This document shows positions 33,746 to 44,530 of a DNA stretch of 64,000 bases, piece after piece. Both the position numbers and the translations under genes were made by a program. The number at the start of each line of letters is the position of its first letter. The first letter of the stretch is position 1. Below the pieces are notes generated by a model. That model searched no databases. It was not told where the DNA came from and saw nothing but the letters and a program-made list of their open reading frames with translations. Location of the stretch: NCBI GenBank assembly GCA_045863295.1, contig BTWA01000028.1, forward strand, positions 5,274 through 69,273, in the 5' to 3' direction. This DNA comes from Candidatus Hydrogenedentota bacterium. GTDB taxonomy: Bacteria; Hydrogenedentota; Hydrogenedentia; Hydrogenedentales; SLHB01.

Positions 33746-34561
33746 CTACTTGAACCGGTTCAGCACGGTTTGCCGGTAACGTTCCTCACCCAATGTTCCC
33801 TGCGTCTTCATATCGGCGGGAAATTGCGCAGCCAATTGTTGTAGCAAGACAATCCGGTTCTGCGTCAACGGATGCGACGACAGCAAGGCGAAGGGCATTG
33901 AGCCGCCCCCGGACTGTTCCTGTTCCAGCATCCGGCTCATAAACGAAACCATGGCGTCGGGATTGTAGCCCGCGCGAAACAGTACGTCCATGCCCAGTTT
34001 GTCGGCCTCGCGTTCCTGATCGCGCGAAAACTTCAACGTGGCCATTCCGCCAATTATTTGCGCGCCTGCCTGCCCGATGGGTTTTCCTTCGAGCGCGGCA
34101 TTTGCCGCCGCAATCAGCAGTTCCAGTTGTTGTTGCCTGGCAATGGATTCGCCGTGATGCTCTGCCGCCACGTGGGCAATTTCGTGGCCCATTACAGACG
34201 CCAGTTCCGCCTCGTTCTGGCAGAGCTTCAACAGGCCCGTATAGATATACATATGCCCGCCCGGGAGCGCGAATGCGTTTAGCTCGTCCTTCTCAATGAC
34301 GGTAAACCGGTATTCGACGTTCTGCCGTGGCGACACCCGCGCCAGCCGGTCGCCAATCTCGCCGATGTACTTCTGAATGGACGCGTCGTCAAGCACTTTT
34401 TCCGTCTTTTCGACTTCTTGTGAAAGCTGGGCACCAATTGCCATTTCCTGCTCTTCGGACAGAGCGCTGGGCGGGGTGTAGGTGCCTTCCCCCGTGGTGG
34501 CGCAACCGGACACAACTCCGGCCGCGATCAGAGTCAATCCGATGATCCAAGGCAGTCGCAT
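33746..34561 (-). CDS. M48-family zinc metallopeptidase lipoprotein
   Basis: Lipoprotein signal LIAAGVVSGC. HExxH motif in ...VMGHEIAHVAAEHH.... Confidence 0.8.
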   Translation of the reverse strand: MRLPWIIGLTLIAAGVVSGCATTGEGTYTPPSALSEEQEMAIGAQLSQEVEKTEKVLDDASIQKYIGEIGDRLARVSPRQNVEYRFTVIEKDELNAFALPGGHMYIYTGLLKLCQNEAELASVMGHEIAHVAAEHHGESIARQQQLELLIAAANAALEGKPIGQAGAQIIGGMATLKFSRDQEREADKLGMDVLFRAGYNPDAMVSFMSRMLEQEQSGGGSMPFALLSSHPLTQNRIVLLQQLAAQFPADMKTQGTLGEERYRQTVLNRFK

Positions 34562-34686: not shown

Positions 34687-35205
34687 TTAGTCGCCCTGAT
34701 ACAGCGGTATCTTTGAGCCGCACTGTTGTACCGGAAGTATTTCCTCAAACTTCTCTGGCGAAACGGACGGGCCCTTTGATGTGCAATGCGCATTGAAGGC
34801 TTTGCGCAATTCGTTCGCGATTTCTACTGCATTTCGCTGTTCGATGTGGTGGCGCTGCATGGCAAAGAACGGCTTTCCGTCTTTAAACAGGATGACGTTG
34901 GGAGAACTTGGCGGCAATTCTGGTCCGATGAGTTGGCGGGCGCGTTGCGTGGCTTCGGTGTCCATTCCGGCAAAGACAGTATACAGCTTGTCGGGAATGA
35001 GGTCATTTTGCAGGGCCAACATGACCCCAGGCCGACAGGCACCGGCGGCGCATCCGCACACCGAATTAATGACGAGCATGGCCGTGCCCGTGGACTGTCC
35101 CAAGGCTGCGTCTACAGCGTCAGGCGTTGTCAAAGGCGTTATGCCCACTTCCACCAGTTCCTCCCACATGGGCCGAACGGCTTCCGGATCGTACATTGGA
35201 GGCAT
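34687..35205 (-). CDS. Bacilliredoxin-like (BrxA/BrxB, YphP/YqiW, DUF1094) thioredoxin-fold protein
   Basis: Characteristic CGC active-site context ...MLVINSVCGCAAG.... The start was moved to the internal ATG (MPPMYDPEAV) with GGGGAG 11 nt upstream. Carries a roughly 30-aa C-terminal extension compared with Bacillus homologues. Confidence 0.6.
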   Translation of the reverse strand: MPPMYDPEAVRPMWEELVEVGITPLTTPDAVDAALGQSTGTAMLVINSVCGCAAGACRPGVMLALQNDLIPDKLYTVFAGMDTEATQRARQLIGPELPPSSPNVILFKDGKPFFAMQRHHIEQRNAVEIANELRKAFNAHCTSKGPSVSPEKFEEILPVQQCGSKIPLYQGD

Positions 35206-35495
35206 ACTTGGAAACTCCCCTTGGGTTTTCAGAGGCTGGTAGGATATCAGGCGAGCCCCGCTGCAGGCGAGTTTTGCCTCGCTTGGCGCCATCCCTTGCC
35301 TTTTCCCCTCGAACATGCTTGTACAGGGGGTTTATTCCCCGTTTGTAGGCCGAATCGGGCGCGGGCGAAACCTGACACCCTCCGGGCTCGTCTGTCATTG
35401 TGACTCGTACTTACCGGTTTTGAACGGTTTGCCCCGTGGGTAATATGGTGTAGGCTACTTGGCGGAGTCAGGTTGAGAGCAAAGGGGAACTGGGC

Positions 35496-36434: not shown

Positions 36435-36546
36435 AGCCGTCGCCATTGCATGAGTTCTTGAGTATCGCGAACAGGACGCTCCCTCCCCCCATTTCAGTCC
36501 GCATTCAGATTTGAGGTGCTCAAGTACACTAAGGGGGACTCTTTTC

Positions 36547-37902
36547 ATGAGCCAGTGCAACGGCACACACCGTATTCCAGGTTGCAGGCGATTGCGGTAT
36601 GGGATCGTTATTCCACTTGCTTTCCTCTCTGCTGGAATTGTAGCCGCGGACGACACGTCGTTGGCAAATGCCATTCTAGGGGACACGCGTCTGGACACCG
36701 TATTGACCCTTGCCAGGTCCACTGTTTCATCGGGTTTCAGCGCGGGATCGGGGTACGGCGAAGTCTGGATTCGCGACTTTACCACGTTTATGGAACTTGC
36801 CTGTGAAGTTCATCCCAAAGAACTTGTGCGCGACAAACTCCTGACCTTTTTCCACTTTCAGACCGAAAATGGGGATATCGCCGATGGATACATCCCCAGA
36901 GAGCAGGCGAACATCTCTTATAAGTACCGCGAAAGCGCGTCGATGCCGGACGTGCTCGCACACAAGAATACAGTGGAAACGGACCAAGAAAGCTCGCTTG
37001 TCATTGGCGTTTGCCGATATGCGCGTTGTACCGGGGACACGGGGATCTTTGCGGAAGACATCAACGACATGACTGTCTCACAGCGTTTGGAACGTGCACT
37101 CGGTTATGTGCACGGACATCGGTTCGATGTTACGCACGGTCTGGTGTGGGGCGCCACGACGGCTGACTGGGGCGACGTTCAACCCGAACATGAATGGGGC
37201 GTCGAACTTGACGAAAGCAGCCATCTTGCGATCGACATTTATGACAACGCATTGTACCTAGTTGCCATTGACGAATACCTGAATTCGGGAGCTGCGATTG
37301 ACGAGGACACGCGGATCAAATGGCATGGAATTCGCCAGACTATTGCGGACGCCGTACGCGCTCATCTCTGGGACAAGGACCGTGGCAAGTTCGTGCCGCA
37401 TATTTATCTCGAATCGTCGCCGTTTCCGGCAAGTTATGACGAGTCTGCCGTTCACTTTCACGGCGGCACAGCGGTTGCAATTGAGGCTGGACTCTTGTCC
37501 AGGCATGAAGTTACCCATGTACTACGTCAGATGAGGGCGAATGTACAGGCCGCCGGCGCGGCCTCCATCGGTTTGACTGTGTATCCTCCCTATCCAAGAG
37601 GCTTCTTCAAGAACCCCGGAATGGGGCCATACAGTTACCAGAATGGCGGTGATTGGACATGGTTCGGCGCGCGAATGATCAGGCAACTTGTACGGCATGG
37701 CCTGGTTGAGGAAGCGTACACCGAGTTGTTGCCAATGCTTGATCGAGTTATTGCCAATAAGGGTTTTCATGAGTGGTACACTGTGGACAACAAACCCAAG
37801 GGATCGGACACGTACCGAGGGTGCGCGGGAGTACTATACTCGGCCATTGTTGACCTGAGGGCTTGGGCTGCATCTCACGCGAATCTGGATATCAAGGAGT
37901 AG
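36547..37902 (+). CDS. Putative (alpha/alpha)6-barrel glycoside hydrolase (GDE_C/GH63/GH15-like)
   Basis: ATG at 36547 with AGGGGG upstream and a signal-like N-terminus. Motifs GYGEVWIRDF, DWGDVQPEHEWG and YQNGGDWTWFGARMI resemble six-hairpin glycosidases. The family assignment is tentative. Confidence 0.5.
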   Translation: MSQCNGTHRIPGCRRLRYGIVIPLAFLSAGIVAADDTSLANAILGDTRLDTVLTLARSTVSSGFSAGSGYGEVWIRDFTTFMELACEVHPKELVRDKLLTFFHFQTENGDIADGYIPREQANISYKYRESASMPDVLAHKNTVETDQESSLVIGVCRYARCTGDTGIFAEDINDMTVSQRLERALGYVHGHRFDVTHGLVWGATTADWGDVQPEHEWGVELDESSHLAIDIYDNALYLVAIDEYLNSGAAIDEDTRIKWHGIRQTIADAVRAHLWDKDRGKFVPHIYLESSPFPASYDESAVHFHGGTAVAIEAGLLSRHEVTHVLRQMRANVQAAGAASIGLTVYPPYPRGFFKNPGMGPYSYQNGGDWTWFGARMIRQLVRHGLVEEAYTELLPMLDRVIANKGFHEWYTVDNKPKGSDTYRGCAGVLYSAIVDLRAWAASHANLDIKE

Positions 37903-38611
37903 TACCTTTGATCACCGCTCTCAGTGAGTTCAAAATTAACTTGGTGATGGCAATTTTTTGGGCTGGTGAACCTGCCGCGAGCCTCTGATTGACTTCTAGT
38001 TCAATGCCGAGATAGCGTGCGGCCGAATATCGTCTCCTTAAGTGCGTAGTGAATCCGTCGGAAACACCCCGGTAGGGCGCATTCCGCCGCACCACGTACT
38101 CCGGTGCGATATCGTGAATCAAGCATTGCCACCGGTGGCAAAGCGCCTTCTCCCCCGGCCGCTTTGGATCGTATAACAAGCCGACGTCCATCCGTCTGAC
38201 TTGCCCGTGAAGGACGGGCGTAAATGTATGTACGGAGACATGCAAGACCCGGTCGTGATTAGTTAGCAGTCCTTCAATCTTCCTTTCGACTTCAGTCCGA
38301 TACGGCATATAGTACGTCGAGAGAATCGACTCTCGAACGGCATCCGGCGCATTCTTTGTGATGTCTGAGAACAAGGAGGGATTTCCGGGAGACCGGTTGA
38401 GTTCCACTAGCAAGCGAGTAATCGTGGAAAAAAGCAGTGGTGCATTCAGTTCTTTGGCGAGACAGCGTGCCAGAGGCAGCGCGCCGGGATCGTAACCCCG
38501 ATGGCTCTCCAGGCGATTATTATGTCCTTTGAAGATCGCCAGGTACTGCTTTGGTACCCGGTTGCCTCCATGTTCACACGTGAACAGGAGTGCCGTGGAG
38601 CGCGCCATCAA
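37892..38611 (-). CDS. N-formylglutamate amidohydrolase (FGase)-family hydrolase
   Basis: N-terminus ...LLFTCEHGGNRVP... and downstream ...HVSVHTFTP... are typical of the FGase/zinc-carboxypeptidase-like family. Last gene of a 4-gene overlapping operon. Confidence 0.75.
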   Translation of the reverse strand: MMARSTALLFTCEHGGNRVPKQYLAIFKGHNNRLESHRGYDPGALPLARCLAKELNAPLLFSTITRLLVELNRSPGNPSLFSDITKNAPDAVRESILSTYYMPYRTEVERKIEGLLTNHDRVLHVSVHTFTPVLHGQVRRMDVGLLYDPKRPGEKALCHRWQCLIHDIAPEYVVRRNAPYRGVSDGFTTHLRRRYSAARYLGIELEVNQRLAAGSPAQKIAITKLILNSLRAVIKGTTP

Positions 38612-39845
38612 ACTGTTCTCCGCGTTGCAGACATTCGCACAAGGAGCGGTACACGTTCTTCAGATTTGCAACATTCACGTTGCCGCCGACGGCGCGCACG
38701 ATGCGCCGGGAAAGCGTGCCATGGCGAAGAATATGGTTTACCGGCCCGAGTAGTCTTACTTCATCGTCAGAGCACTTTGGAACCAGGTTCTTATAGATGT
38801 GACTCCACAGTTCACCCGCCGTAGCGCTTTGCCCGTTGAAGCCGAACGCGTTGAGGTATTCGCGATTGTCTATCGGCGCATCTTCGGCCGTCCGAACGGT
38901 ATCGCGCAGAATTTCCGCCAACGGAGGTACGGCCCACTTTTTTTGTTCGTCCCAACCGCACCAGTCCTCTTCCACTAACGCCCTAATTGTCTTAGTAACC
39001 AACATCACAATGGCAATATCCGCGGCGGGGCATTCCTGGACGTCCAGGAGGCGCACCTCAATGGTGTCTCTTTCGAAACGTGCAATGGCTCCGCGAGCAT
39101 TGAGCCATTCATCCTGCAAAACGGCATCAGGATCAAGCGGAGCAATTTCACGGTACAACGGCTGCAAGATATTCCGTTCATATTCGTCTGGCGTGAAAAC
39201 GGGTTCCGGTATGACGTCGCCGGTGACCATGGGCACCTTGGCACAGTTTGTTCGATATACTTCCAGCCGGTAATCCATGGGGCCCGCTAGTTTGGCGTCG
39301 GCAAACGGGGAACTGGCGGCTATAGCGGGCAGGAGGGGCAGGACTAGCCGAATCGCGGCATGCAGGCGGCCAAATTCCTCGTCGCCGCAAAACGGCAAAT
39401 TGATGTGCGCGCTCTGCAGATTGGCCCATCCGTGTCCCTTGCAATCGAATATGCGGTTGAAGGCATCGTAAATGGGCGAGTTTTCATGAGGCCAGAGCCT
39501 CATTTCGGCGTGCGGATCCATCCACGGGTGCATGGCGGTGGGCATCAGTCGCCCGCGCATTGGATTCAGAATGCGGTTTACGTCTCGTACGTGTTGGTCG
39601 AAATGGGTCGAAAGGCCCGCAAGCGACGCAGCCGGCCCGTTTGTTTTGAATTCGATGACGTGCAGGGTCAACTCATTTGACCAATTCAGCAGTCCGCGGT
39701 CAACTTCGTTAACGTACGAGCCGGCGACTGCTTTGATGACTTCGTCGCATGCGGGAAAGGTATTCAGCGAGTCCTCGCGGACGATCATGTATTCAAGTTC
39801 CACGCCAAACCCTTCGAACAAATGCAGGGGGGAATTTGGTGTCAT
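38574..39845 (-). CDS. Glutamate-cysteine-ligase family 2 (GCS2, YbdK-type) carboxylate-amine ligase
   Basis: N-terminus ...LHLFEGFGVELEYMIV..., with full-length resemblance to YbdK-type GCS2 proteins. Its start overlaps the upstream ATP-grasp stop (ATGA). Confidence 0.8.
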   Translation of the reverse strand: MTPNSPLHLFEGFGVELEYMIVREDSLNTFPACDEVIKAVAGSYVNEVDRGLLNWSNELTLHVIEFKTNGPAASLAGLSTHFDQHVRDVNRILNPMRGRLMPTAMHPWMDPHAEMRLWPHENSPIYDAFNRIFDCKGHGWANLQSAHINLPFCGDEEFGRLHAAIRLVLPLLPAIAASSPFADAKLAGPMDYRLEVYRTNCAKVPMVTGDVIPEPVFTPDEYERNILQPLYREIAPLDPDAVLQDEWLNARGAIARFERDTIEVRLLDVQECPAADIAIVMLVTKTIRALVEEDWCGWDEQKKWAVPPLAEILRDTVRTAEDAPIDNREYLNAFGFNGQSATAGELWSHIYKNLVPKCSDDEVRLLGPVNHILRHGTLSRRIVRAVGGNVNVANLKNVYRSLCECLQRGEQFDGALHGTPVHV

Positions 39846-41311
39846 TTGTGCGTGCCAGGCTCCTTCAGGGCTTCGATCCGGCTCAGGAAGACGCCCATTA
39901 TCTTGTTGTAGAGTTCGTCTTTCACAAGGCTGTCTTCCACCCCGGCATCAATGCTTGGATTATCGTTCACCTCGATTACACTCACCTGGTGCCGGTGCTC
40001 TTTCAAATCAACTCCGTAGAGTCCATCTCCGATGAGATTGGCGGCCTTGACGGCGGTCTTGATGACGGCAGACGGGGTTGCCTCGATGGGCACGCAATCA
40101 TGCTCGCCGTAGGTAATGTTTCCACTTTGTTCCGTTTTCTGTATTTGCCAGTGTTTGCTTGCCATGTGATACCGGCACACGTATAGCGGCTCGCGGTTAA
40201 GTACACCGACGCGCCAATCAAACGTGGTGGGCATAAACTCTTGTGCGATGATCAATTCGGACCTGTCCAGCAAGCGTTCGCATTCGCTTAGAAGCGTCTC
40301 GCGATCGTTCACCTTGATGACACCTTGGGAAAAAAAGCTGTCCGGTTGTTTCAAGATGCAGGGCAGTCCAATAAGGTCGTGCAAATCTTCGTAATTATCG
40401 CGGTGAACAATGACGGTTTTTGGGGTGCGAATGTTGTTCTTGCCGAGCAACTCGGCCAGATACACTTTGTTGCTGCAGCGCAGAATGGATTCAGGGTCGT
40501 CGATGACGACTAGTCCGTCGGCCGCCGCCCTTTGCGCAAACCGGAAGGTATGGTGATTGACCTGGGTCGTCTCCCGGATGAAGAGAGCATCGAACTCGGC
40601 GAGCCGGCCGTAGTCTTCCTTTTCGATGAACTCTGGCTCCATGCCAAGCGCTTTCGCGGCGCGTTCGAACTTCCGCAAGGCGCGCTCATTGGACGGCGGC
40701 ATTTTCTCTTCCGGATTGTGCAAGATGGCGATGTCGTATCGTGCAGTCGGCTTTTTCCGCACGGCAAACCGGGGACGCGAGAAATAGACCTTAGCTGCTT
40801 CCAGCACGAATTCCCAATGCTCGTCGGGAATGTCCTTTGCTCCAATTGGGGCTATCCGCTGCAACTCCCACTGTTCTTCAAAGGTGAAATGAGCCCGCAT
40901 CAGGGGCACATGAAACGCGTTCATGAGTGCTTTGCACAGTTTGTCGTACCTTCGGGCCATATTCTGGCCGAAATAGATGCTTAGGGTGAATTCCTTTGAT
41001 TGCAGCGGCCGAAGGCAGTGCTGCATCATCTCTTCCAGGTCTTCGGATGCGTAGCGCAGCAGCGTGACGGACTTCATGTCTTGAATCGTGGTCACGGCAG
41101 GGACGGGCCGGTGTCCGCGCGCGGCGGCAATCAGTGAAACATAATAGCCGAGACTCTGATACCGATACGACCGGCAGAGATTGAATACCAGCATGCCGCG
41201 GTCGCCGCTATATTCCTGGCTGGTAACATAGGTCCGGGCATCCACTACATCGACCCCGGGAAAATGGAGTGGCCAATGCTTGGTGTTGTCAACGATAATG
41301 AGCGCTTGCAT
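39842..41311 (-). CDS. RimK-like ATP-grasp ligase with about 190-aa N-terminal (RLAN-type) domain
   Basis: C-terminal 290 aa are RimK-like (...NKVYLAELLGKNNIRTPKTVIVH..., ...GLPCILKQPDSFFSQGVIKV..., ...IEVNDNPSID...). The N-terminal 190 aa form a separate domain consistent with the 'RimK-like ATP-grasp N-terminal' domain that I recall from comparative-genomics work. Confidence 0.8.
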   Translation of the reverse strand: MQALIIVDNTKHWPLHFPGVDVVDARTYVTSQEYSGDRGMLVFNLCRSYRYQSLGYYVSLIAAARGHRPVPAVTTIQDMKSVTLLRYASEDLEEMMQHCLRPLQSKEFTLSIYFGQNMARRYDKLCKALMNAFHVPLMRAHFTFEEQWELQRIAPIGAKDIPDEHWEFVLEAAKVYFSRPRFAVRKKPTARYDIAILHNPEEKMPPSNERALRKFERAAKALGMEPEFIEKEDYGRLAEFDALFIRETTQVNHHTFRFAQRAAADGLVVIDDPESILRCSNKVYLAELLGKNNIRTPKTVIVHRDNYEDLHDLIGLPCILKQPDSFFSQGVIKVNDRETLLSECERLLDRSELIIAQEFMPTTFDWRVGVLNREPLYVCRYHMASKHWQIQKTEQSGNITYGEHDCVPIEATPSAVIKTAVKAANLIGDGLYGVDLKEHRHQVSVIEVNDNPSIDAGVEDSLVKDELYNKIMGVFLSRIEALKEPGTHK

Positions 41312-42032
41312 GGCTTGGGGAGCGATCTCCGTCTTTCGGCTGGAGGACGAGCAGATTGGCGTCGTAGGTCAGAACGCCCAGGAGGATGGAACAGATCAGC
41401 CGGTCCATATTGACTTTGTAGAATTGGGTATCGGAGACCGGATTGGGGTCCTGCGGGTCGGCCACGAGCACTTCCCGATCTTCCTTGTCGTATCCACAGA
41501 GCACCACAAAATGGCCCTGCGGCTCGCCGCGTACATCGTCGAAATCGTCGTTGGGACCCCACTCTCGGGCGGTTCGGTACAGGTAGGTGGAACTCAACCC
41601 AGTGAGTATGGGAACGCCGCGCTTCAAGTACCGGCGAATGAGTGACGGGGTAAGGTCTTGCAACCCCAGCCTACCGCCGGCGTCAAGGTATTTCAGATAG
41701 GCTTGCGTAGCCACGTGGAACCGCTTTCCGGACTTGTTTTTGGCTTGGGCGCGTAGCTTGTCGGCCAAATCGGTGCCGGGAACGTCAAACCATGTAGGGT
41801 CGAACATTTGCAGGTTGAAAGTATAGATTTTCGCGTCATATCCTCGCTGCAGGGCCTGCCCAGCCAGCATTACGGCCAATGTACCGCCATTTTCGAGCCG
41901 GGGCGTGGCATCGATAACCTCTTCCAGAGAATACGTGTCGCCGTAGTAATTGTAGACGGCATGCAGACACGTGGGTCCGCAGGTAAATTCGTCGGGTTGG
42001 GCCAATATGCCTAATTGAAGCCGGGCGTCCAT
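41289..42032 (-). CDS. Standalone peptidase C39-like (double-glycine-leader-type papain-fold cysteine peptidase)
   Basis: Start chosen at the ATG at 42030-42032 (MDARLQLG...) with AAGGA 5 nt upstream. Upstream ORF sequence overlaps the divergent + gene start and was discarded. C39 signature QPDEFTCGPTCLHAVYNYYGD (Q...C-G-x-x-C-L) and His motif GHFVVLCGYDKEDREVLVADP (H-h-V-V...DP). First gene of the operon. Confidence 0.7.
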   Translation of the reverse strand: MDARLQLGILAQPDEFTCGPTCLHAVYNYYGDTYSLEEVIDATPRLENGGTLAVMLAGQALQRGYDAKIYTFNLQMFDPTWFDVPGTDLADKLRAQAKNKSGKRFHVATQAYLKYLDAGGRLGLQDLTPSLIRRYLKRGVPILTGLSSTYLYRTAREWGPNDDFDDVRGEPQGHFVVLCGYDKEDREVLVADPQDPNPVSDTQFYKVNMDRLICSILLGVLTYDANLLVLQPKDGDRSPSHASAHYR

Positions 42033-42216
42033 GTGTCCTTCTTGGGGCGCGTACCAATCCCCCATCGGCCTGTCAACGCGCCTCTGTCCTTGATTATACA
42101 GGTTGTAAAGCGACCAGCGGTAGCGCACGGCCCCCGGTGGAGAGGGGTTGGCAGACCTGTTCGCGTGATGTATAGTGGGGTATCGGGCAAGAAGCTTCAA
42201 TTCCTGGGAGTCCATC

Positions 42217-44007
42217 ATGCGGATCAGAAATACTGTAGCGCTGTTCTTTGTCGTTGCGGCCTTGGTATGCAGTTCCGCCATAGCCGAAGTGAAGGTTGGC
42301 GATATTCCGGCCGAATTCCGATTTAAGGATATCCGGTATGTCGAGCGTTCGTTGAGTGAGTTGGGCGAGTCGAAAGCCATAGTGGTGATGGCTTCCTCAA
42401 CCACCTGCCCGGTGGCTCAACGCTACTTGCCGGTTTTTCAGGCGTTGTCGGATCAATTCGGACATGAGGCCACGTTTGTCCTCATAAATGTCAGCGCTGA
42501 TGACTCCATCATGGATATGGCTCAACAGGCCATTGACTATAATCTCACGGTAACGCTGGCGAAAGACATAGACGGCACCGCTGTGAAAGCGCTTGGGCTG
42601 ACTCGAACGCCGGAGGTGGTGGTTTTGGACAGCGAAAGGCGCGTTCGATACCGCGGGCGTGTAGACGGTCAACACCGGGTTAGTGGAGTGAGTCCGGATT
42701 CGGGTCGTGCAGACCTTGCCTTGGCGTTGGAACAGGTATTGACAGGAAAGACGGTCGAAGTCACAGAGACACCGGTTGACGGCTGCGTAATATCTGAACC
42801 AGTGACGACGGCGGAAAAGGCTTACACGTATACGAGAGACGTTGCACCGATCTTGGACGCCCATTGTGTGAAATGTCACCGGGTCGATGGCGGGGCTCCA
42901 TTTTCATTGCAAACCTATTCGCGCGCGGCCGCTATGGCAGACATGATTGCGGAAGTCATTACTGAGGAGCGTATGCCACCGTGGTACGCGCATTCCGCGC
43001 ACGGAACGTTTGTGAATGCGCCGTCCATTTCGGACAGTGACCGGCGAATTGTGGCCGGGTGGGCTCGCGGCGGAAAGATTGAAGGCGAGGCCGAAGACCG
43101 GCCGGAAGCGCCGGTGTTTGCGGACTCCAAATGGCGCATTGGAGAACCGGATCTGGTGATCACCGCGAAGGATGAAATGCAGATTCCGGCAACGGGCTAC
43201 ATCAAGTACCAGTACATTCCGATGCCGTATGTATTTCCGCACGACACGTGGATTCAGGGTCTGGAGATCAGGCCCGAGAACGCAACGGTGCTTCACCACT
43301 GCAACATGATCTATATGCTGCCGGGCCAAGAGTATAGCCAAGAGACTCAATTCCTTACGGGATACGTACCGGGGGGTGCACCCGTGGATTTGGACAAGAA
43401 CCGGGCAATGATGATACCCAAAGGTGCGACGCTGGTTCTCCAAGCCCATTACGTGACTACCGGCAAAGAAGAAAGGGACCGTGTCTCCATTGGTATCCGG
43501 TTCGCAAAAGAGCCGGTGGAGAAAAGAGTCTATTATAAAATCATTAACAACGATTCATTTGCGATTCCAGCGGGCGATCCATTTTATTGCGTAACAGCCG
43601 AGGATTCGATGGAGGAGGACAGTACGGGCATCGCGATGTTTTCACACATGCACCTGCGCGGACGGGACATGCTGTTCAATGCGCACTTCCCTGACGGCAA
43701 GAAGGAAACGTTGCTGAGTATTCCCAACTATGACTTTAATTGGCAGCTGTCGTATGTGTGGGAACCTTTCACGAAGAAGTTTCCCAAAGGCACGCGCATC
43801 GAAGTGATTGCACACTACGACAACTCTTCGTTCAATCCGTACAATCCAGATCCTTCCGCGGTGGTCAAGGATGGCCCTCAAACCTTTGAAGAAATGATGT
43901 ACGGGTTCTTCTTCTACACCCGGGATGGCGAAAACCTCAATCTGGCCGTGAATCCGGAAACTGGCGAAAGCATGGGTGAAAAAGTGGCGGCTGCCGTGGC
44001 GCCGTAA
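42217..44007 (+). CDS. Secreted three-domain redox protein: thioredoxin/redoxin-like + Planctomycete-type cytochrome c (CxxCH) + copper type-II monooxygenase-like C-terminal domain
   Basis: ATG at 42217 (GGGAG upstream) with a signal peptide. Redoxin-like ...AIVVMASSTTCPVAQRYLP.... Heme motif ...VAPILDAHCVKCHRVDGGAPF.... C-terminal His/Met pattern VLHHCNMIY ... HYVTTG ... FSHMHLRGRDM ... M, reminiscent of PHM/DBH CuH/CuM ligands. Confidence 0.6.
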   Translation: MRIRNTVALFFVVAALVCSSAIAEVKVGDIPAEFRFKDIRYVERSLSELGESKAIVVMASSTTCPVAQRYLPVFQALSDQFGHEATFVLINVSADDSIMDMAQQAIDYNLTVTLAKDIDGTAVKALGLTRTPEVVVLDSERRVRYRGRVDGQHRVSGVSPDSGRADLALALEQVLTGKTVEVTETPVDGCVISEPVTTAEKAYTYTRDVAPILDAHCVKCHRVDGGAPFSLQTYSRAAAMADMIAEVITEERMPPWYAHSAHGTFVNAPSISDSDRRIVAGWARGGKIEGEAEDRPEAPVFADSKWRIGEPDLVITAKDEMQIPATGYIKYQYIPMPYVFPHDTWIQGLEIRPENATVLHHCNMIYMLPGQEYSQETQFLTGYVPGGAPVDLDKNRAMMIPKGATLVLQAHYVTTGKEERDRVSIGIRFAKEPVEKRVYYKIINNDSFAIPAGDPFYCVTAEDSMEEDSTGIAMFSHMHLRGRDMLFNAHFPDGKKETLLSIPNYDFNWQLSYVWEPFTKKFPKGTRIEVIAHYDNSSFNPYNPDPSAVVKDGPQTFEEMMYGFFFYTRDGENLNLAVNPETGESMGEKVAAAVAP

Positions 44008-44029
44008 TCCAATATGCATACGCTTGTAT

Positions 44030-44068
44030 AGAGATGAACGGTCATGGTGCCGTTCATCTCTGTTTTTT
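44030..44068 (+). terminator. Rho-independent terminator
   Basis: gagatgaacgg-tcatggtgc-cgttcatctc perfect inverted repeat, immediately followed by tgtttttt. Confidence 0.85.
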
Positions 44069-44083
44069 AAGGGGACTGCATGG

Positions 44084-44530
44084 ATGACCTTCCAAATAAG
44101 ACCATTCATGGATTCGGATACTGATGCTGTAGTGGATCTCTGGCGGGCATGCGGGCTAACTGTAGCGTGGAATGATCCGTACAAGGATATTTTGCGGAAG
44201 CGGCATGTGGGGCCGGAGTTCTTTCTCGTGGCGGAAGCGACCCACCGTATCGTTGGAACAGTCATGGGTGGTTACGACGGCCACCGAGGAAACGTAAACT
44301 ACTTGGGAGTTCTCCCGGATGTCAGGGGCGACGGGGTGGGCCGACAACTCATGGATGCCGTTGAAGTGCTGCTAATGGCGGCCGGATGTCCAAAGATAAA
44401 CTTGTGCGTACGTGCCACAAACATAGGCGCCATCGGATTTTATGAGACACTTGGCTATTCGCGCGATTCGGTGGTCTTGCTTGGAAAGCGACTAATTCCG
44501 GACATTCTGGACGTCCCATCGGGAATTTGA
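44084..44530 (+). CDS. GNAT-family N-acetyltransferase
   Basis: ATG at 44084 (AAGGGGA upstream). About 148 aa with an acetyl-CoA-binding region ...RGDGVGRQLMDAVEVLLMAAGC... (Q/RxxGxG/A-type motif). Confidence 0.8.
   Translation: MTFQIRPFMDSDTDAVVDLWRACGLTVAWNDPYKDILRKRHVGPEFFLVAEATHRIVGTVMGGYDGHRGNVNYLGVLPDVRGDGVGRQLMDAVEVLLMAAGCPKINLCVRATNIGAIGFYETLGYSRDSVVLLGKRLIPDILDVPSGI

Follow-up and report, generated by a model that had tools for sequence, protein, structure and literature searches.

Four overlapping minus-strand genes, encoding a cysteine peptidase, an RLAN-RimK ligase, a GCS2 ligase and an FGase-type hydrolase, occupy positions 37892-42032 of the window, the 64,000-nt stretch of Candidatus Hydrogenedentota DNA (Table 1). 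All junctions were read directly and bear out the chain of overlaps described in an earlier note on this DNA. The peptidase and RLAN-RimK genes share 23 nt (ATG 41311 against TGA 41289-41291), and the RLAN-RimK stop and the GCS2 start share an ATGA at 39842-39845. The GCS2 and FGase genes overlap by 38 nt if the latter starts at TTG 38611 and by 35 nt if it starts at ATG 38608, the two candidates being adjacent codons with a GGAG 6-9 nt upstream. The four overlapping genes form one translationally coupled operon, and the unit comprises exactly these four because it is bounded at its 5' side by a divergent gene at 42175 (+) and at its 3' side by a convergent gene at 36511-37902 (+), which overlaps the end of the FGase gene by 11 nt.

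Table 1. Coordinates of the operon features and of the region upstream of them
Feature	Position	Strand	Basis
Divergent intergenic region	42033..42174	-	TATAAT 42098-42093; purine-rich AAGAAGGA 42043-42036
C39-like (papain-fold) cysteine peptidase, 247 aa	41289..42032	-	Pfam; invariant catalytic residues
RLAN domain, ~residues 1-190 of the 489-aa ligase	40742..41311	-	Pfam RLAN 1e-44
RimK-type ATP-grasp module, ~residues 191-489 of the ligase	39842..40741	-	Pfam RimK 9e-9
GCS2-family carboxylate-amine ligase (glutamine-synthetase-like fold), 423 aa	38574..39845	-	Pfam GCS2 7e-19
FGase-family (N-formylglutamate-amidohydrolase-like) metal hydrolase, 238-239 aa	37892..38611	-	Pfam FGase 3e-25

The open frame of the peptidase extends from 41289 to 42404 and is longer than the gene read from ATG 42032. 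This ATG is most likely the real start, as the public annotation gives a 247-aa protein (P0121) that is 100% identical, homologues align from residue 1, and the purine-rich AAGAAGGA lies immediately 5'. Upstream of it the sequence reads as a perfect -10-like hexamer, which may mark a putative promoter; in 42033..42174 a consensus scan returned no promoter on the minus strand because the -35 element is poor. No Rfam riboswitch match was found within 37000-43000. Judged by eye, the N-termini do not look like signal peptides, and the four enzymes are read as probably cytoplasmic. None of the four proteins matched a PADLOC defence model at E<=0.01, and a reading as a defence system was rejected. 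Among the genes near the operon in the window, one codes for a redoxin-domain protein and another for a bacilliredoxin-like one.

The four enzymes

In the profile search every domain named by the earlier note (C39, RLAN and RimK, GCS2, FGase) scored above its Pfam cut-off. The peptidase matches Peptidase_C39_2 (9e-11, 42.9 bits against a cut-off of 24) and also Peptidase_C39 (7e-7), and combines a papain-like fold (AF2 model: pLDDT 79.8, pTM 0.81) with the Gln/Cys/His/Asp set of the C39 family. The residues in question, Q12, C18, H174 and D192, show no variation in two homologue sets, of 34 and of 68. Both motifs quoted earlier are present, containing Q12/C18 and H174, with D192 following, so that the catalytic Cys/His are intact, as claimed, and the inactive C39-like fold raised as an alternative is not what was found. 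In sequence and fold the nearest proteins are the double-glycine protease domains of PCAT/ComA transporters. Unlike those leader peptidases, the operon enzyme is a stand-alone 247-aa unit with an insertion of ~80 aa between its Cys and His parts, and has neither an ABC exporter partner nor a nearby GG-leader precursor.

The RLAN-RimK ligase (39842-41311, minus strand, 489 aa) exceeds the gathering score for both of its Pfam domains, RLAN (PF14401; 152.3 bits against 25) and RimK (PF08443; 35.7 bits against 21), which by profile makes it a member of the RLAN-containing RimK-like family. It is 50-67% identical to hundreds of homologues of 486-494 aa with the same two domains, and its cross-phylum identity, at 50-60%, is unusually high. 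RLAN, the family-defining N-terminal domain, holds many invariant polar or basic residues (N44, Y51, Q52, R65 and others). A search for a solved structure of RLAN found none; the structures closest to its AF2 model (pLDDT 73.5, pTM 0.45) are those of ArgX/LysX. The RimK module has RimK, LysX and Pseudomonas RimK as PDB relatives and keeps K321, D365-W366-R367 and E447-x-N449 invariant; the invariant R246, R367 and N449 align with R64, R189 and N262, the poly-Glu contacts of P. aeruginosa RimK. The protein is related to RimK only, and orthology was rejected on scores below the cut-offs of both the NCBIfam family model (TIGR00768; 4e-19, 69.1 bits against 143.4) and the S6--L-glutamate ligase model (NF007764; 24 bits against 331). 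MptN is the second-best NCBIfam match (1.5e-17, 64 bits against 350), and the score against the LysX equivalog model is also far under its cut-off. Assignment as GshB fails likewise (PRK05246, 17.6 bits against 272; PRK12458, 43.9 against 408).

GCS2 is the family of gamma-glutamyl-cysteine ligase. The operon protein is placed in it by a Pfam score of 68.8 bits against 21 and by its retained acidic and His residues, predicted to bind metal; E16, E18, E58, H62, E65, H147, N149, R251, R256, E263 and R265 are invariant in 68 sequences. It has no PDB relative at E<=0.01, and its best NCBIfam match, PRK13517.1-1, reaches 47 bits against a cut-off of 332. Neither YbdK (TIGR02050, 36.8 bits against 176.4) nor GshA is an acceptable identity, every GshA model falling far short (30.4 bits against 249 for the cyanobacterial gshA model). 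The activity typical of FGase is cleavage of N-acyl-Glu. The FGase-like protein scores 90.1 bits against 28.9 and keeps E13, H14, H37, D41, H124, H128, E204 and E206 invariant in 39 sequences; its closest structure is the uncharacterised Atu2144 (2odf, 6.5e-23). HutG was rejected for it (TIGR02017, 18.9 bits against 278.75; hut genes absent nearby). With catalytic residues invariant in their homologues, all four enzymes look active.

Conservation and sister architectures

A close RLAN-RimK homologue occurs in at least 600 genome loci, and neighbourhoods were counted in the best 80, which represent ~13 phylum-level groups. Co-conservation of the four genes had been set beforehand as a test of the operon, and it holds in these loci: RLAN-RimK has a C39-like gene as its immediate upstream neighbour in 69/75 and GCS2 as its immediate downstream neighbour in 62/72, and GCS2 is followed by FGase in 40/59. 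Junctions in the reference loci usually overlap, with median gaps of -4 (C39-like/RLAN-RimK), -4 (RLAN-RimK/GCS2) and -12 nt (GCS2/FGase), and a neighbourhood check started from the peptidase gives the same picture. Dozens of unrelated genomes repeat the order together with the tight junctions, which is more than chance would give. The window operon follows the conserved C39-like/RLAN-RimK/GCS2/(FGase) pattern in order, strand and overlapping junctions; it is an unexceptional example of a widespread operon type, to which the window adds nothing unusual. The peptidase, earlier taken for an unusual addition to an RLAN/GCS2/FGase triad, belongs to the canonical arrangement and is the most constant, core partner of RLAN-RimK, ahead of FGase, which is absent from about one third of loci. 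Some RLAN-RimK genes stand alone, and the ligase therefore has no strict need for a GCS2 product.

Only the four operon genes are conserved across the 80 loci. The genomic contexts are unrelated, no flanking Pfam family exceeding 3/107 nearest neighbours, and no conserved transporter or regulator was found near the operon in the 80 loci and 107 neighbours. In agreement with the earlier remark that no precursor gene is visible, these loci contain no conserved small ORF (15-70 aa, or >=60 aa) in or beside the operon, and the junctions are too tight to hold one. As only four genes are conserved and no substrate gene is linked to them, the substrates must be universal.

Cultured carriers are Legionella adelaidensis, Thiobacillus thioparus, Pontibacter, Marivirga and Blastopirellula marina; the operon is also present in Proteobacteria, and Azospirillum and Pseudomonas aeruginosa have related forms. 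Clustering at 50% identity divides the RLAN proteins of public data into 971 groups. In the literature that could be searched, no experimental study of the operon was found. A neighbourhood of RLAN-RimK, GCS2, FGase and a papain-like peptidase, the same domain set as here, was reportedly predicted by comparative genomics by Iyer, Abhiman, Burroughs and Aravind in 2009 (Mol Biosyst 5:1636), work that is also said to be the source of the Pfam RLAN family.

In Azospirillum the gene immediately upstream of RLAN-RimK encodes a fusion of GNAT with the C39-like DUF3335, and monocistronic GNAT-RLAN-RimK fusions also exist. Judged by their domains, these sister architectures have a GNAT acetyltransferase domain in place of the GCS2 ligase. 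Amine capping is common to gamma-glutamylation and acetylation, a logic followed by N-acetyl-aspartyl-glutamate and by NAGGN, the latter made by the GNAT+ATP-grasp enzyme Ngg (PMC8070244). A review (PMC10318531) cites Iyer et al. 2009 for C39-like DUF3335 fused to GNAT 'peptide ligase/acetylase' domains, the architecture found in Azospirillum.

Proposed function and competing explanations

The general reading of the earlier note, an uncharacterised amide-ligation and processing system whose substrate is encoded elsewhere or is a metabolite, holds. The explanation preferred here, proposed tentatively, goes further: the four genes would make up an autonomous module of the cytoplasm, able to build and trim a small acidic, N-capped glutamate peptide or oligomer, non-ribosomally and from free metabolites. 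GCS2 would activate the gamma-carboxylate of glutamate and couple it to an amino acid or a comparable amine, yielding a gamma-glutamyl cap or primer. RLAN-RimK could then add one or more alpha-linked glutamates to the carboxylate left free at the C-terminus, while RLAN, basic and highly conserved, would hold the acidic acceptor or growing product. The C39-like peptidase, whose gene is usually start/stop-coupled to that of the ligase, may cut or transfer the chain for length control or turnover, a role likened to that of the unrelated protease RimB for Pseudomonas RimK. Finally, the FGase-like hydrolase, often but not always present, would take off the terminal N-acyl-Glu bond and recycle glutamate. 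What the sequences establish are the domain identities, the intact catalytic residues, the conserved operon structure and the lack of a co-conserved substrate gene. We infer which substrates are used, in what order the enzymes act and what kind of product results, and each chemical step would follow from family membership at the level of fold or superfamily.

The capped-peptide model draws on analogy, as characterised members of three of the four families perform glutamate chemistry. For RimK-family enzymes the acceptor of alpha-Glu is a C-terminal carboxylate, whether on a protein, a cofactor or free glutamate (PMC8141765; PMC11957791), and the match of R246/R367/N449 to the poly-Glu contacts of RimK points to a predicted acidic-acceptor site. 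Also in favour are the invariant catalytic residues, the autonomy of the four-gene unit, the GNAT variants, and the precedents of MyfA/MyfB for two successive ligases and of RimK/RimB for a ligase with its peptidase. Against the model stand the equivalog models of RimK, MptN, LysX, GshA, GshB, YbdK and HutG, all far below their cut-offs, as well as the loci without FGase and the standalone RLAN-RimK genes; nor does any linked exporter or regulator hint at a physiological purpose for a free peptide.

A bolder form of the model, which appears doubtful, makes the product an undescribed class, a gamma-glutamyl-primed oligo- or poly-alpha-glutamate, either a cyanophycin-like acidic polymer or a short peptide. 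GCS2 would act as primer maker, RLAN would tether the lengthening chain while the RimK module acts on it, and the C39-like and FGase-like enzymes would serve as dedicated depolymerase and end-trimming hydrolase. If this were true, bacteria would widely use the product as a store, a buffer or a chelator of divalent cations, and the GNAT variants would make an N-acetyl-capped version of it.

The main rival, protein modification, seems rather unlikely. RLAN-RimK would here glutamylate the C-terminus of a conserved, unlinked protein, S6 being the obvious candidate; RLAN would dock the protein, the two hydrolases would trim its tail, as in RimK/RimB or eukaryotic TTLL/CCP, and GCS2 would attach a branch or cap through a gamma linkage, comparable to the use that PafA makes of the C-terminal Glu of Pup. 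The data also fit a protein substrate, as bacterial RimK has just one established role in vivo, the polyglutamylation of S6, and a protease encoded with it takes the glutamates off again (PMC4741518, PMC11957791, PMC10092738). The operon has no linked substrate gene, a situation shared with rimK and rpsF. All four proteins are very highly conserved across phyla, and this, including the ligase identity noted above, would fit docking on a conserved, universal macromolecule. LysX/ArgX bind a carrier protein, LysW, and the RLAN model appears to resemble their N-terminal part. Ribosomal proteins are also acetylated by GNAT domains, and the GNAT partners could be RimI-like protein acetyltransferases. 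This reading is weakened by the distance of the ligase from the RimK family (69 against 143 bits) and S6-ligase (24 against 331) models, and by the fact that characterised GCS2 and FGase members are not known to act on anything other than small molecules. Deletion of Francisella FTT0178, a 490-aa 'rimK' that is probably an RLAN-RimK family member, caused no attenuation, which is unexpected for a ribosome-tuning system, weak as this evidence is (PMC2675058).

Synthesis of a glutathione-like thiol is improbable. GCS2 would make gamma-Glu-Cys and the ATP-grasp would add a third residue, like GshA and GshB, with the papain-fold enzyme as a phytochelatin-synthase-like transpeptidase that oligomerises or degrades the thiol and FGase recycling the product. 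A GS-fold ligase with an ATP-grasp ligase is indeed the fold pair of glutathione synthesis, and the redoxin-domain and bacilliredoxin-like neighbours would suit it, but these are not kept at other loci, and the swap of GCS2 for GNAT in the sister architectures would not be tolerable for a thiol pathway. Proteobacteria, which also carry the operon, in general already make glutathione. With GshA, GshB and YbdK models far under their cut-offs and an ATP-grasp of RimK/LysX rather than GshB type, glutathione synthesis proper is rejected, and what survives of the earlier "glutathione-like" is an analogy of folds.

RiPP or bacteriocin maturation, in which the C39 peptidase would remove the double-glycine leader of a ribosomal precursor modified by the two ligases, is very improbable and largely refuted: although the peptidase is nearest to PCAT/ComA double-glycine protease domains, the Gly-Gly leader-peptidase flavour given to it earlier fails on the missing ABC-transporter fusion or neighbour and the missing conserved ORF at 80 loci (15-70 aa or >=60 aa), the junctions are too close for a precursor gene to fit in, neither ligase is of the graspetide type, and the module occurs in unrelated contexts.

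The options are thereby narrowed to exclude a RiPP, a defence system and glutathione synthesis proper, and the peptidase emerges as a core partner of the ligase. A strongly conserved, widely distributed operon type thus joins two amide ligases to two hydrolases without a linked substrate gene; its product, once known, would reveal either a new glutamate-based metabolite or polymer, or a second, RimK-independent bacterial protein glutamylation.

Comparison with known systems

Pseudomonas RimABK resembles the operon in placing a RimK-type ligase beside a dedicated peptidase, RimB, which trims the Glu chain and modulates RimK, removing glutamate and stimulating poly-Glu synthesis (PMC11957791). 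The two ligases also have in common the Arg and Asn residues that contact poly-Glu. RimB, however, is a retropepsin, whereas the operon peptidase is a papain-fold cysteine enzyme; the operon ligase has the extra 190-aa RLAN and scores under the RimK family cut-off; GCS2 and FGase are without counterpart in the Rim system; and the RimA/c-di-GMP component is absent from the operon.

GshA and GshB with phytochelatin synthase likewise combine a glutamine-synthetase-like gamma-glutamyl ligase, an ATP-grasp and a papain-fold enzyme acting on the product, but no equivalog model of that pathway is matched and the operon ATP-grasp is of the RimK/LysX type. In MfnD/MyfA, MyfB, MptN and CofF, enzymes of methylofuran/methanofuran and of F420/H4MPT glutamyl tails, a gamma-glutamyl-amine ligase is followed by a RimK-like alpha-Glu extender, as exemplified by the C-terminal poly-Glu extension carried out by MyfB after MyfA (PMC8141765). 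There the first ligase has an ATP-grasp fold, whereas in the operon it has the GCS2 fold, and the operon includes two hydrolases and no linked cofactor-biosynthesis genes. With LysW-LysX/ArgX, finally, the operon shares an ATP-grasp module related to LysX, and ArgX/LysX are also the best matches of the RLAN model.

Organisation of the operon and its enzymes

Four minus-strand genes, whose frames and junctions were read directly, encode a C39-like peptidase, a RLAN-RimK ligase, a GCS2 ligase and an FGase-like hydrolase as one translationally coupled unit, so that the overlapping operon described in the earlier note is real. The peptidase and ligase genes overlap by 23 nt, the ligase and GCS2 genes share an ATGA, and the GCS2/FGase overlap measures 38 nt with a TTG start or 35 nt with the adjacent ATG at 38608. 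The peptidase frame is open as far as 42404; ATG 42032 was taken as the start on the basis of the 247-aa public annotation (P0121, 100% identical), an alignment of 33 homologues and a purine-rich stretch just upstream, and the annotation and alignment led to the longer 371-aa frame being dropped. Bounded by a divergent gene upstream and a convergent gene downstream, the unit comprises exactly four genes. Its GC content is that of its surroundings, and window positions 37000-43000 gave no Rfam match at E<=1 to a riboswitch or other RNA.

Genes of the operon and neighbouring features in the window
Feature	Position	Strand	Product	Domain match or remark
M48 peptidase	33746-34561			adjoins the bacilliredoxin-like ORF
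Bacilliredoxin-like ORF	34687-35316	-		Disulph_isomer (PF06491) 5e-49; CGC motif
Convergent gene	36511-37902	+	463 aa	no Pfam match at E<=1e-4; overlaps final 11 nt of FGase gene
FGase-like hydrolase	37892-38611	-	239 aa	FGase, Pfam 3e-25
GCS2 ligase	38574-39845	-	423 aa	GCS2, Pfam 7e-19
RLAN-RimK ligase	39842-41311	-	489 aa	RLAN 1e-44 and RimK 9e-9, Pfam
C39-like peptidase	41289-42032	-	247 aa	Peptidase_C39_2, Pfam 9e-11
Divergent gene	42175-44007	+	610 aa	AhpC/TSA-redoxin domain
GNAT acetyltransferase (small)	43976-44530	+		two genes upstream of operon

Among the neighbours, the bacilliredoxin-like ORF points to a redox system of bacillithiol type in the source of the window, a metagenome-assembled genome of Candidatus Hydrogenedentota. 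The divergent gene product has a signal-peptide-like N-terminus and a C-terminal region of ~400 aa that carries a CxxCH haem-binding motif (HCVKCH) and has no Pfam match. The GNAT gene is probably unrelated to the operon, since its placement is not kept in other loci.

The four domain assignments made earlier stand, each Pfam match lying above the gathering score of its family. None of the four proteins reaches a characterised equivalog in an NCBIfam scan: the RimK family model scores 69 bits against a cut-off of 143, MptN 64 against 350, LysX 60 against 276, the best GshA-type model 47 against 332, YbdK 37 against 176 and HutG 19 against 279. All four therefore represent distinct subfamilies within their superfamilies. 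Residues that show no or almost no variation across 34-80 homologues include Q12, C18, H174 and D192 of the peptidase, in agreement with the intact C39 catalytic signatures noted earlier, as well as K321, D365-W366-R367 and E447-x-N449 of the ATP-grasp module, E16/E18, E58, H62, E65, H147/N149 and E263/R265 of GCS2, and E13-H14, H37, D41, H124, H128 and E204/E206 of FGase. Judging by this conservation, the four enzymes are apparently active. No signal peptide is apparent on reading the four N-termini, and the system is accordingly read as cytoplasmic.

The AF2 model of the peptidase is good (pLDDT 79.8, pTM 0.81) and shows a papain fold of C39-like type into which ~80 aa of additional helical sequence are inserted; taken alone, this predicted fold would fit cleavage of an alpha-peptide, an isopeptide or a gamma-glutamyl bond alike. 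For the RLAN domain, whose model is moderate (pLDDT 73.5, pTM 0.45), no solved structural relative was found. Its best matches, ArgX/LysX structures, suggest that the domain descends from the N-terminal region by which such an enzyme binds its acceptor or carrier, a proposal that stays a fold-level lead because profile-profile comparison of the RLAN half with the other half of the ligase gave no sequence signal. The many invariant basic and polar residues of RLAN would fit a genuine binding site for an acidic ligand.

Many C39-like proteins in the homologue alignment share a C-terminal "HAxxHRR" tail, which was considered as a ligase substrate or independent motif and rejected: it is an out-of-frame reading of the conserved RLAN N-terminus, MxxLIVV(N/D). 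Within the 23-26-nt gene overlap, at 41289-41311 in the window, CTC ATC GTC GTT AAC reads ..CAT CGT CGT TAA in the other frame. The tail is disordered in the peptidase model and missing from homologues with a 4-nt overlap.

Conservation and genomic context

Thousands of proteins in public data are homologous to the RLAN-RimK ligase at an identity of ~60%, and a scan with one genome per species gave at least 600 loci with a ligase homologue. Gene order was assessed in the best 80 of these, which, going by record titles, span about 13 phylum-level groups, namely Planctomycetota, Pseudomonadota (Gamma, Beta), Bacteroidota/Balneolaceae, Myxococcota, Desulfobacterota, Acidobacteriota, Nitrospirota, Nitrospinota, Verrucomicrobiota, Spirochaetota, Fibrobacterota, Sumerlaeota and Omnitrophota, with Blastopirellula marina, Pontibacter, Marivirga, Thiobacillus thioparus, Desulfosediminicola and Lentisalinibacter as cultured carriers. 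On the same strand, a C39-like gene lies directly upstream of the ligase in 69 of 75 assessable loci (median gap -4 nt), GCS2 directly downstream in 62 of 72 (-4 nt), and FGase follows GCS2 in 40 of 59 (-12 nt), to which Pfam adds at least two divergent FGases. A peptidase-based search recovers the same four-gene unit, as does an NCBI-annotated Legionella adelaidensis record. The genes are thus co-conserved, and of all partners of the ligase the C39-like gene is the most regularly present; the earlier note had implied that it is an unusual addition to a RLAN/GCS2/FGase triad, and it is instead canonical.

Beyond the operon, little is shared. Clustering of ORFs of at least 60 aa within 8 kb on either side, over 80 loci, yielded nothing beyond the four operon genes and antisense shadows of these, and the family ranking next occurred at 9/81 loci. 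Small ORFs (15-70 aa) lying no more than 700 bp from an end of the operon were common only to near-identical genome pairs. With other matches in both size classes confined to such pairs, a precursor peptide within these spans was rejected. A flanking function kept across loci, whether in transport, regulation or metal homeostasis, was likewise rejected, no Pfam family appearing more than three times among the 107 nearest flanking genes, and a defence system was discarded as PADLOC gives no match for the operon proteins. Lacking conserved neighbours and any Rfam or PADLOC match, the module stands on its own: it sits in unrelated contexts without a linked precursor, carrier, exporter or regulator, and its substrates must be universal. 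Nothing in this context supports the leader-peptidase reading proposed earlier.

Neighbours at single loci are anecdotal (MgtC, CorA, SMBP, fur, MFS, CitMHS). Metal genes lie by some copies (loci L092 4426-5004 and L093 1234-1812; also L075, L083 and L088), where an MgtC gene and the start of the C39-like gene overlap; CorA together with a small metal-binding protein flanks a Nitrosomonas copy, and the Legionella copy has fur in its vicinity. An MFS transporter takes the place of FGase after GCS2 at two Phycisphaerae loci (L016 6451-7842, L077 10890-12164).

Sister architectures and literature

A search of 1.84 billion representative proteins with the RLAN profile yielded 971 clusters at E<=1e-3. 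Besides the ~490-aa RLAN-RimK form, three arrangements occur. The first is a single GNAT-RLAN-RimK polypeptide of 636-663 aa (P0296, P0359, P0383; loci L084-L090), encoded by monocistronic genes in variable, unrelated contexts; at L084 and L085 the gene is preceded by a CitMHS/DcuC-type di/tricarboxylate transporter and another GNAT. The second, on plasmid p1 of Azospirillum brasilense Sp7 (L082 4763-5989), is a 408-aa fusion of GNAT to DUF3335 (C39-like), whose gene ends where a RLAN-RimK gene starts, with neither GCS2 nor FGase within 6 kb of the pair. The peptidase domain of the fusion aligns with the window peptidase family over its whole length, including the insertion (hhalign E 5e-4), and the pair is a sister architecture with an acetyltransferase in place of the GCS2 ligase. 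Stand-alone RLAN-RimK genes, the third arrangement, are found in Nitrosomonas, Gallionella and a P. aeruginosa record (L081, NZ_CP133752, 38432-40021). The last encodes 529 aa annotated "RimK family alpha-L-glutamate ligase" and lies near ggt and a glutamate/aspartate ABC transporter, a neighbourhood that we take to resemble the chromosomal PA1338-PA1347 region. ORFs upstream of two stand-alone genes (L060, L068) were considered as divergent C39-like proteins and rejected, hhalign giving no match. The idea that Ngg (NAGGN synthetase) is a RLAN protein of known function was tried with tblastn: RLAN-RimK and GNAT-RLAN-RimK queries against all PLSDB plasmids, presumably including S. meliloti pSymB with its ngg gene, gave no Sinorhizobium match, and the likeness is one of analogy only.

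No experimental study of the operon was found in the literature searched, nor any characterisation of RLAN (PF14401) or DUF3335 proteins. A review devoted to papain-like peptidases (PMC10318531) refers to Iyer et al. 2009 on GNAT-DUF3335 fusions, so the peptidase-amidoligase association is already part of the comparative-genomics literature. Deletion of Francisella tularensis FTT0178, a 490-aa "rimK" product annotated as glutathione synthase/S6 modification enzyme, left virulence in mice unimpaired (PMC2675058); the length of FTT0178 is typical of the RLAN-RimK family, of which it is a possible member. The operon kind is thus computationally recognised, experimentally uncharacterised and very widespread, and the window copy is an ordinary member; interest rests on the family rather than on this instance. 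The uncharacterised ligation and processing system of the earlier note survives in outline, shorn of its emphasis on a C39 leader peptidase.

A candidate glutamate-based pathway

The operon pairs two ATP-dependent amide ligases that differ in fold with two hydrolases, and is conserved as a block. Characterised members of three of the four families work on glutamate, which by analogy may bear on the operon: GCS2 enzymes activate the gamma-carboxylate of glutamate, and FGase enzymes cleave N-acyl-Glu. RimK-type enzymes add alpha-Glu to the C-terminal carboxylate of a protein, a cofactor or free Glu (PMC8141765, PMC11957791). The poly-Glu contacts of P. aeruginosa RimK, R64, R189 and N262, correspond to the invariant R246, R367 and N449 of the window ligase. 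Together with the exchange of GNAT for GCS2 and a peptidase position like that in rimB-rimK, these features lead us tentatively to favour a small capped peptide or oligomer rich in glutamate, with both synthesis and trimming taking place in the cytoplasm.

The main rival reading, a rather less probable one, makes a conserved protein such as S6 the target of glutamylation. It has the RimK precedent, and the lack of a linked substrate gene, the very high conservation of the operon proteins and the LysX-like RLAN fold all speak for it; in several respects it accounts for the data just as well. A glutathione-like thiol pathway proper is improbable, as the GshA-type and YbdK models fall far below their cut-offs, and a RiPP maturation system, with no conserved precursor ORF, exporter or carrier linked to the operon, is most improbable of all.

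For the capped glutamate peptide, the ability of GNAT to stand in for GCS2 suggests that an amine would first be capped, with acetyl (GNAT) or gamma-glutamyl (GCS2), and the capped substrate would then be extended by the RimK module. The same cap-then-extend logic operates in N-acetyl-aspartyl-glutamate synthesis. It is also that of Ngg in NAGGN synthesis (PMC8070244) and of MyfA/MyfB of methylofuran (PMC8141765). The position of the peptidase gene, finally, mirrors that of rimB in rimB-rimK, where the protease takes off glutamates and stimulates the ligase (PMC11957791).
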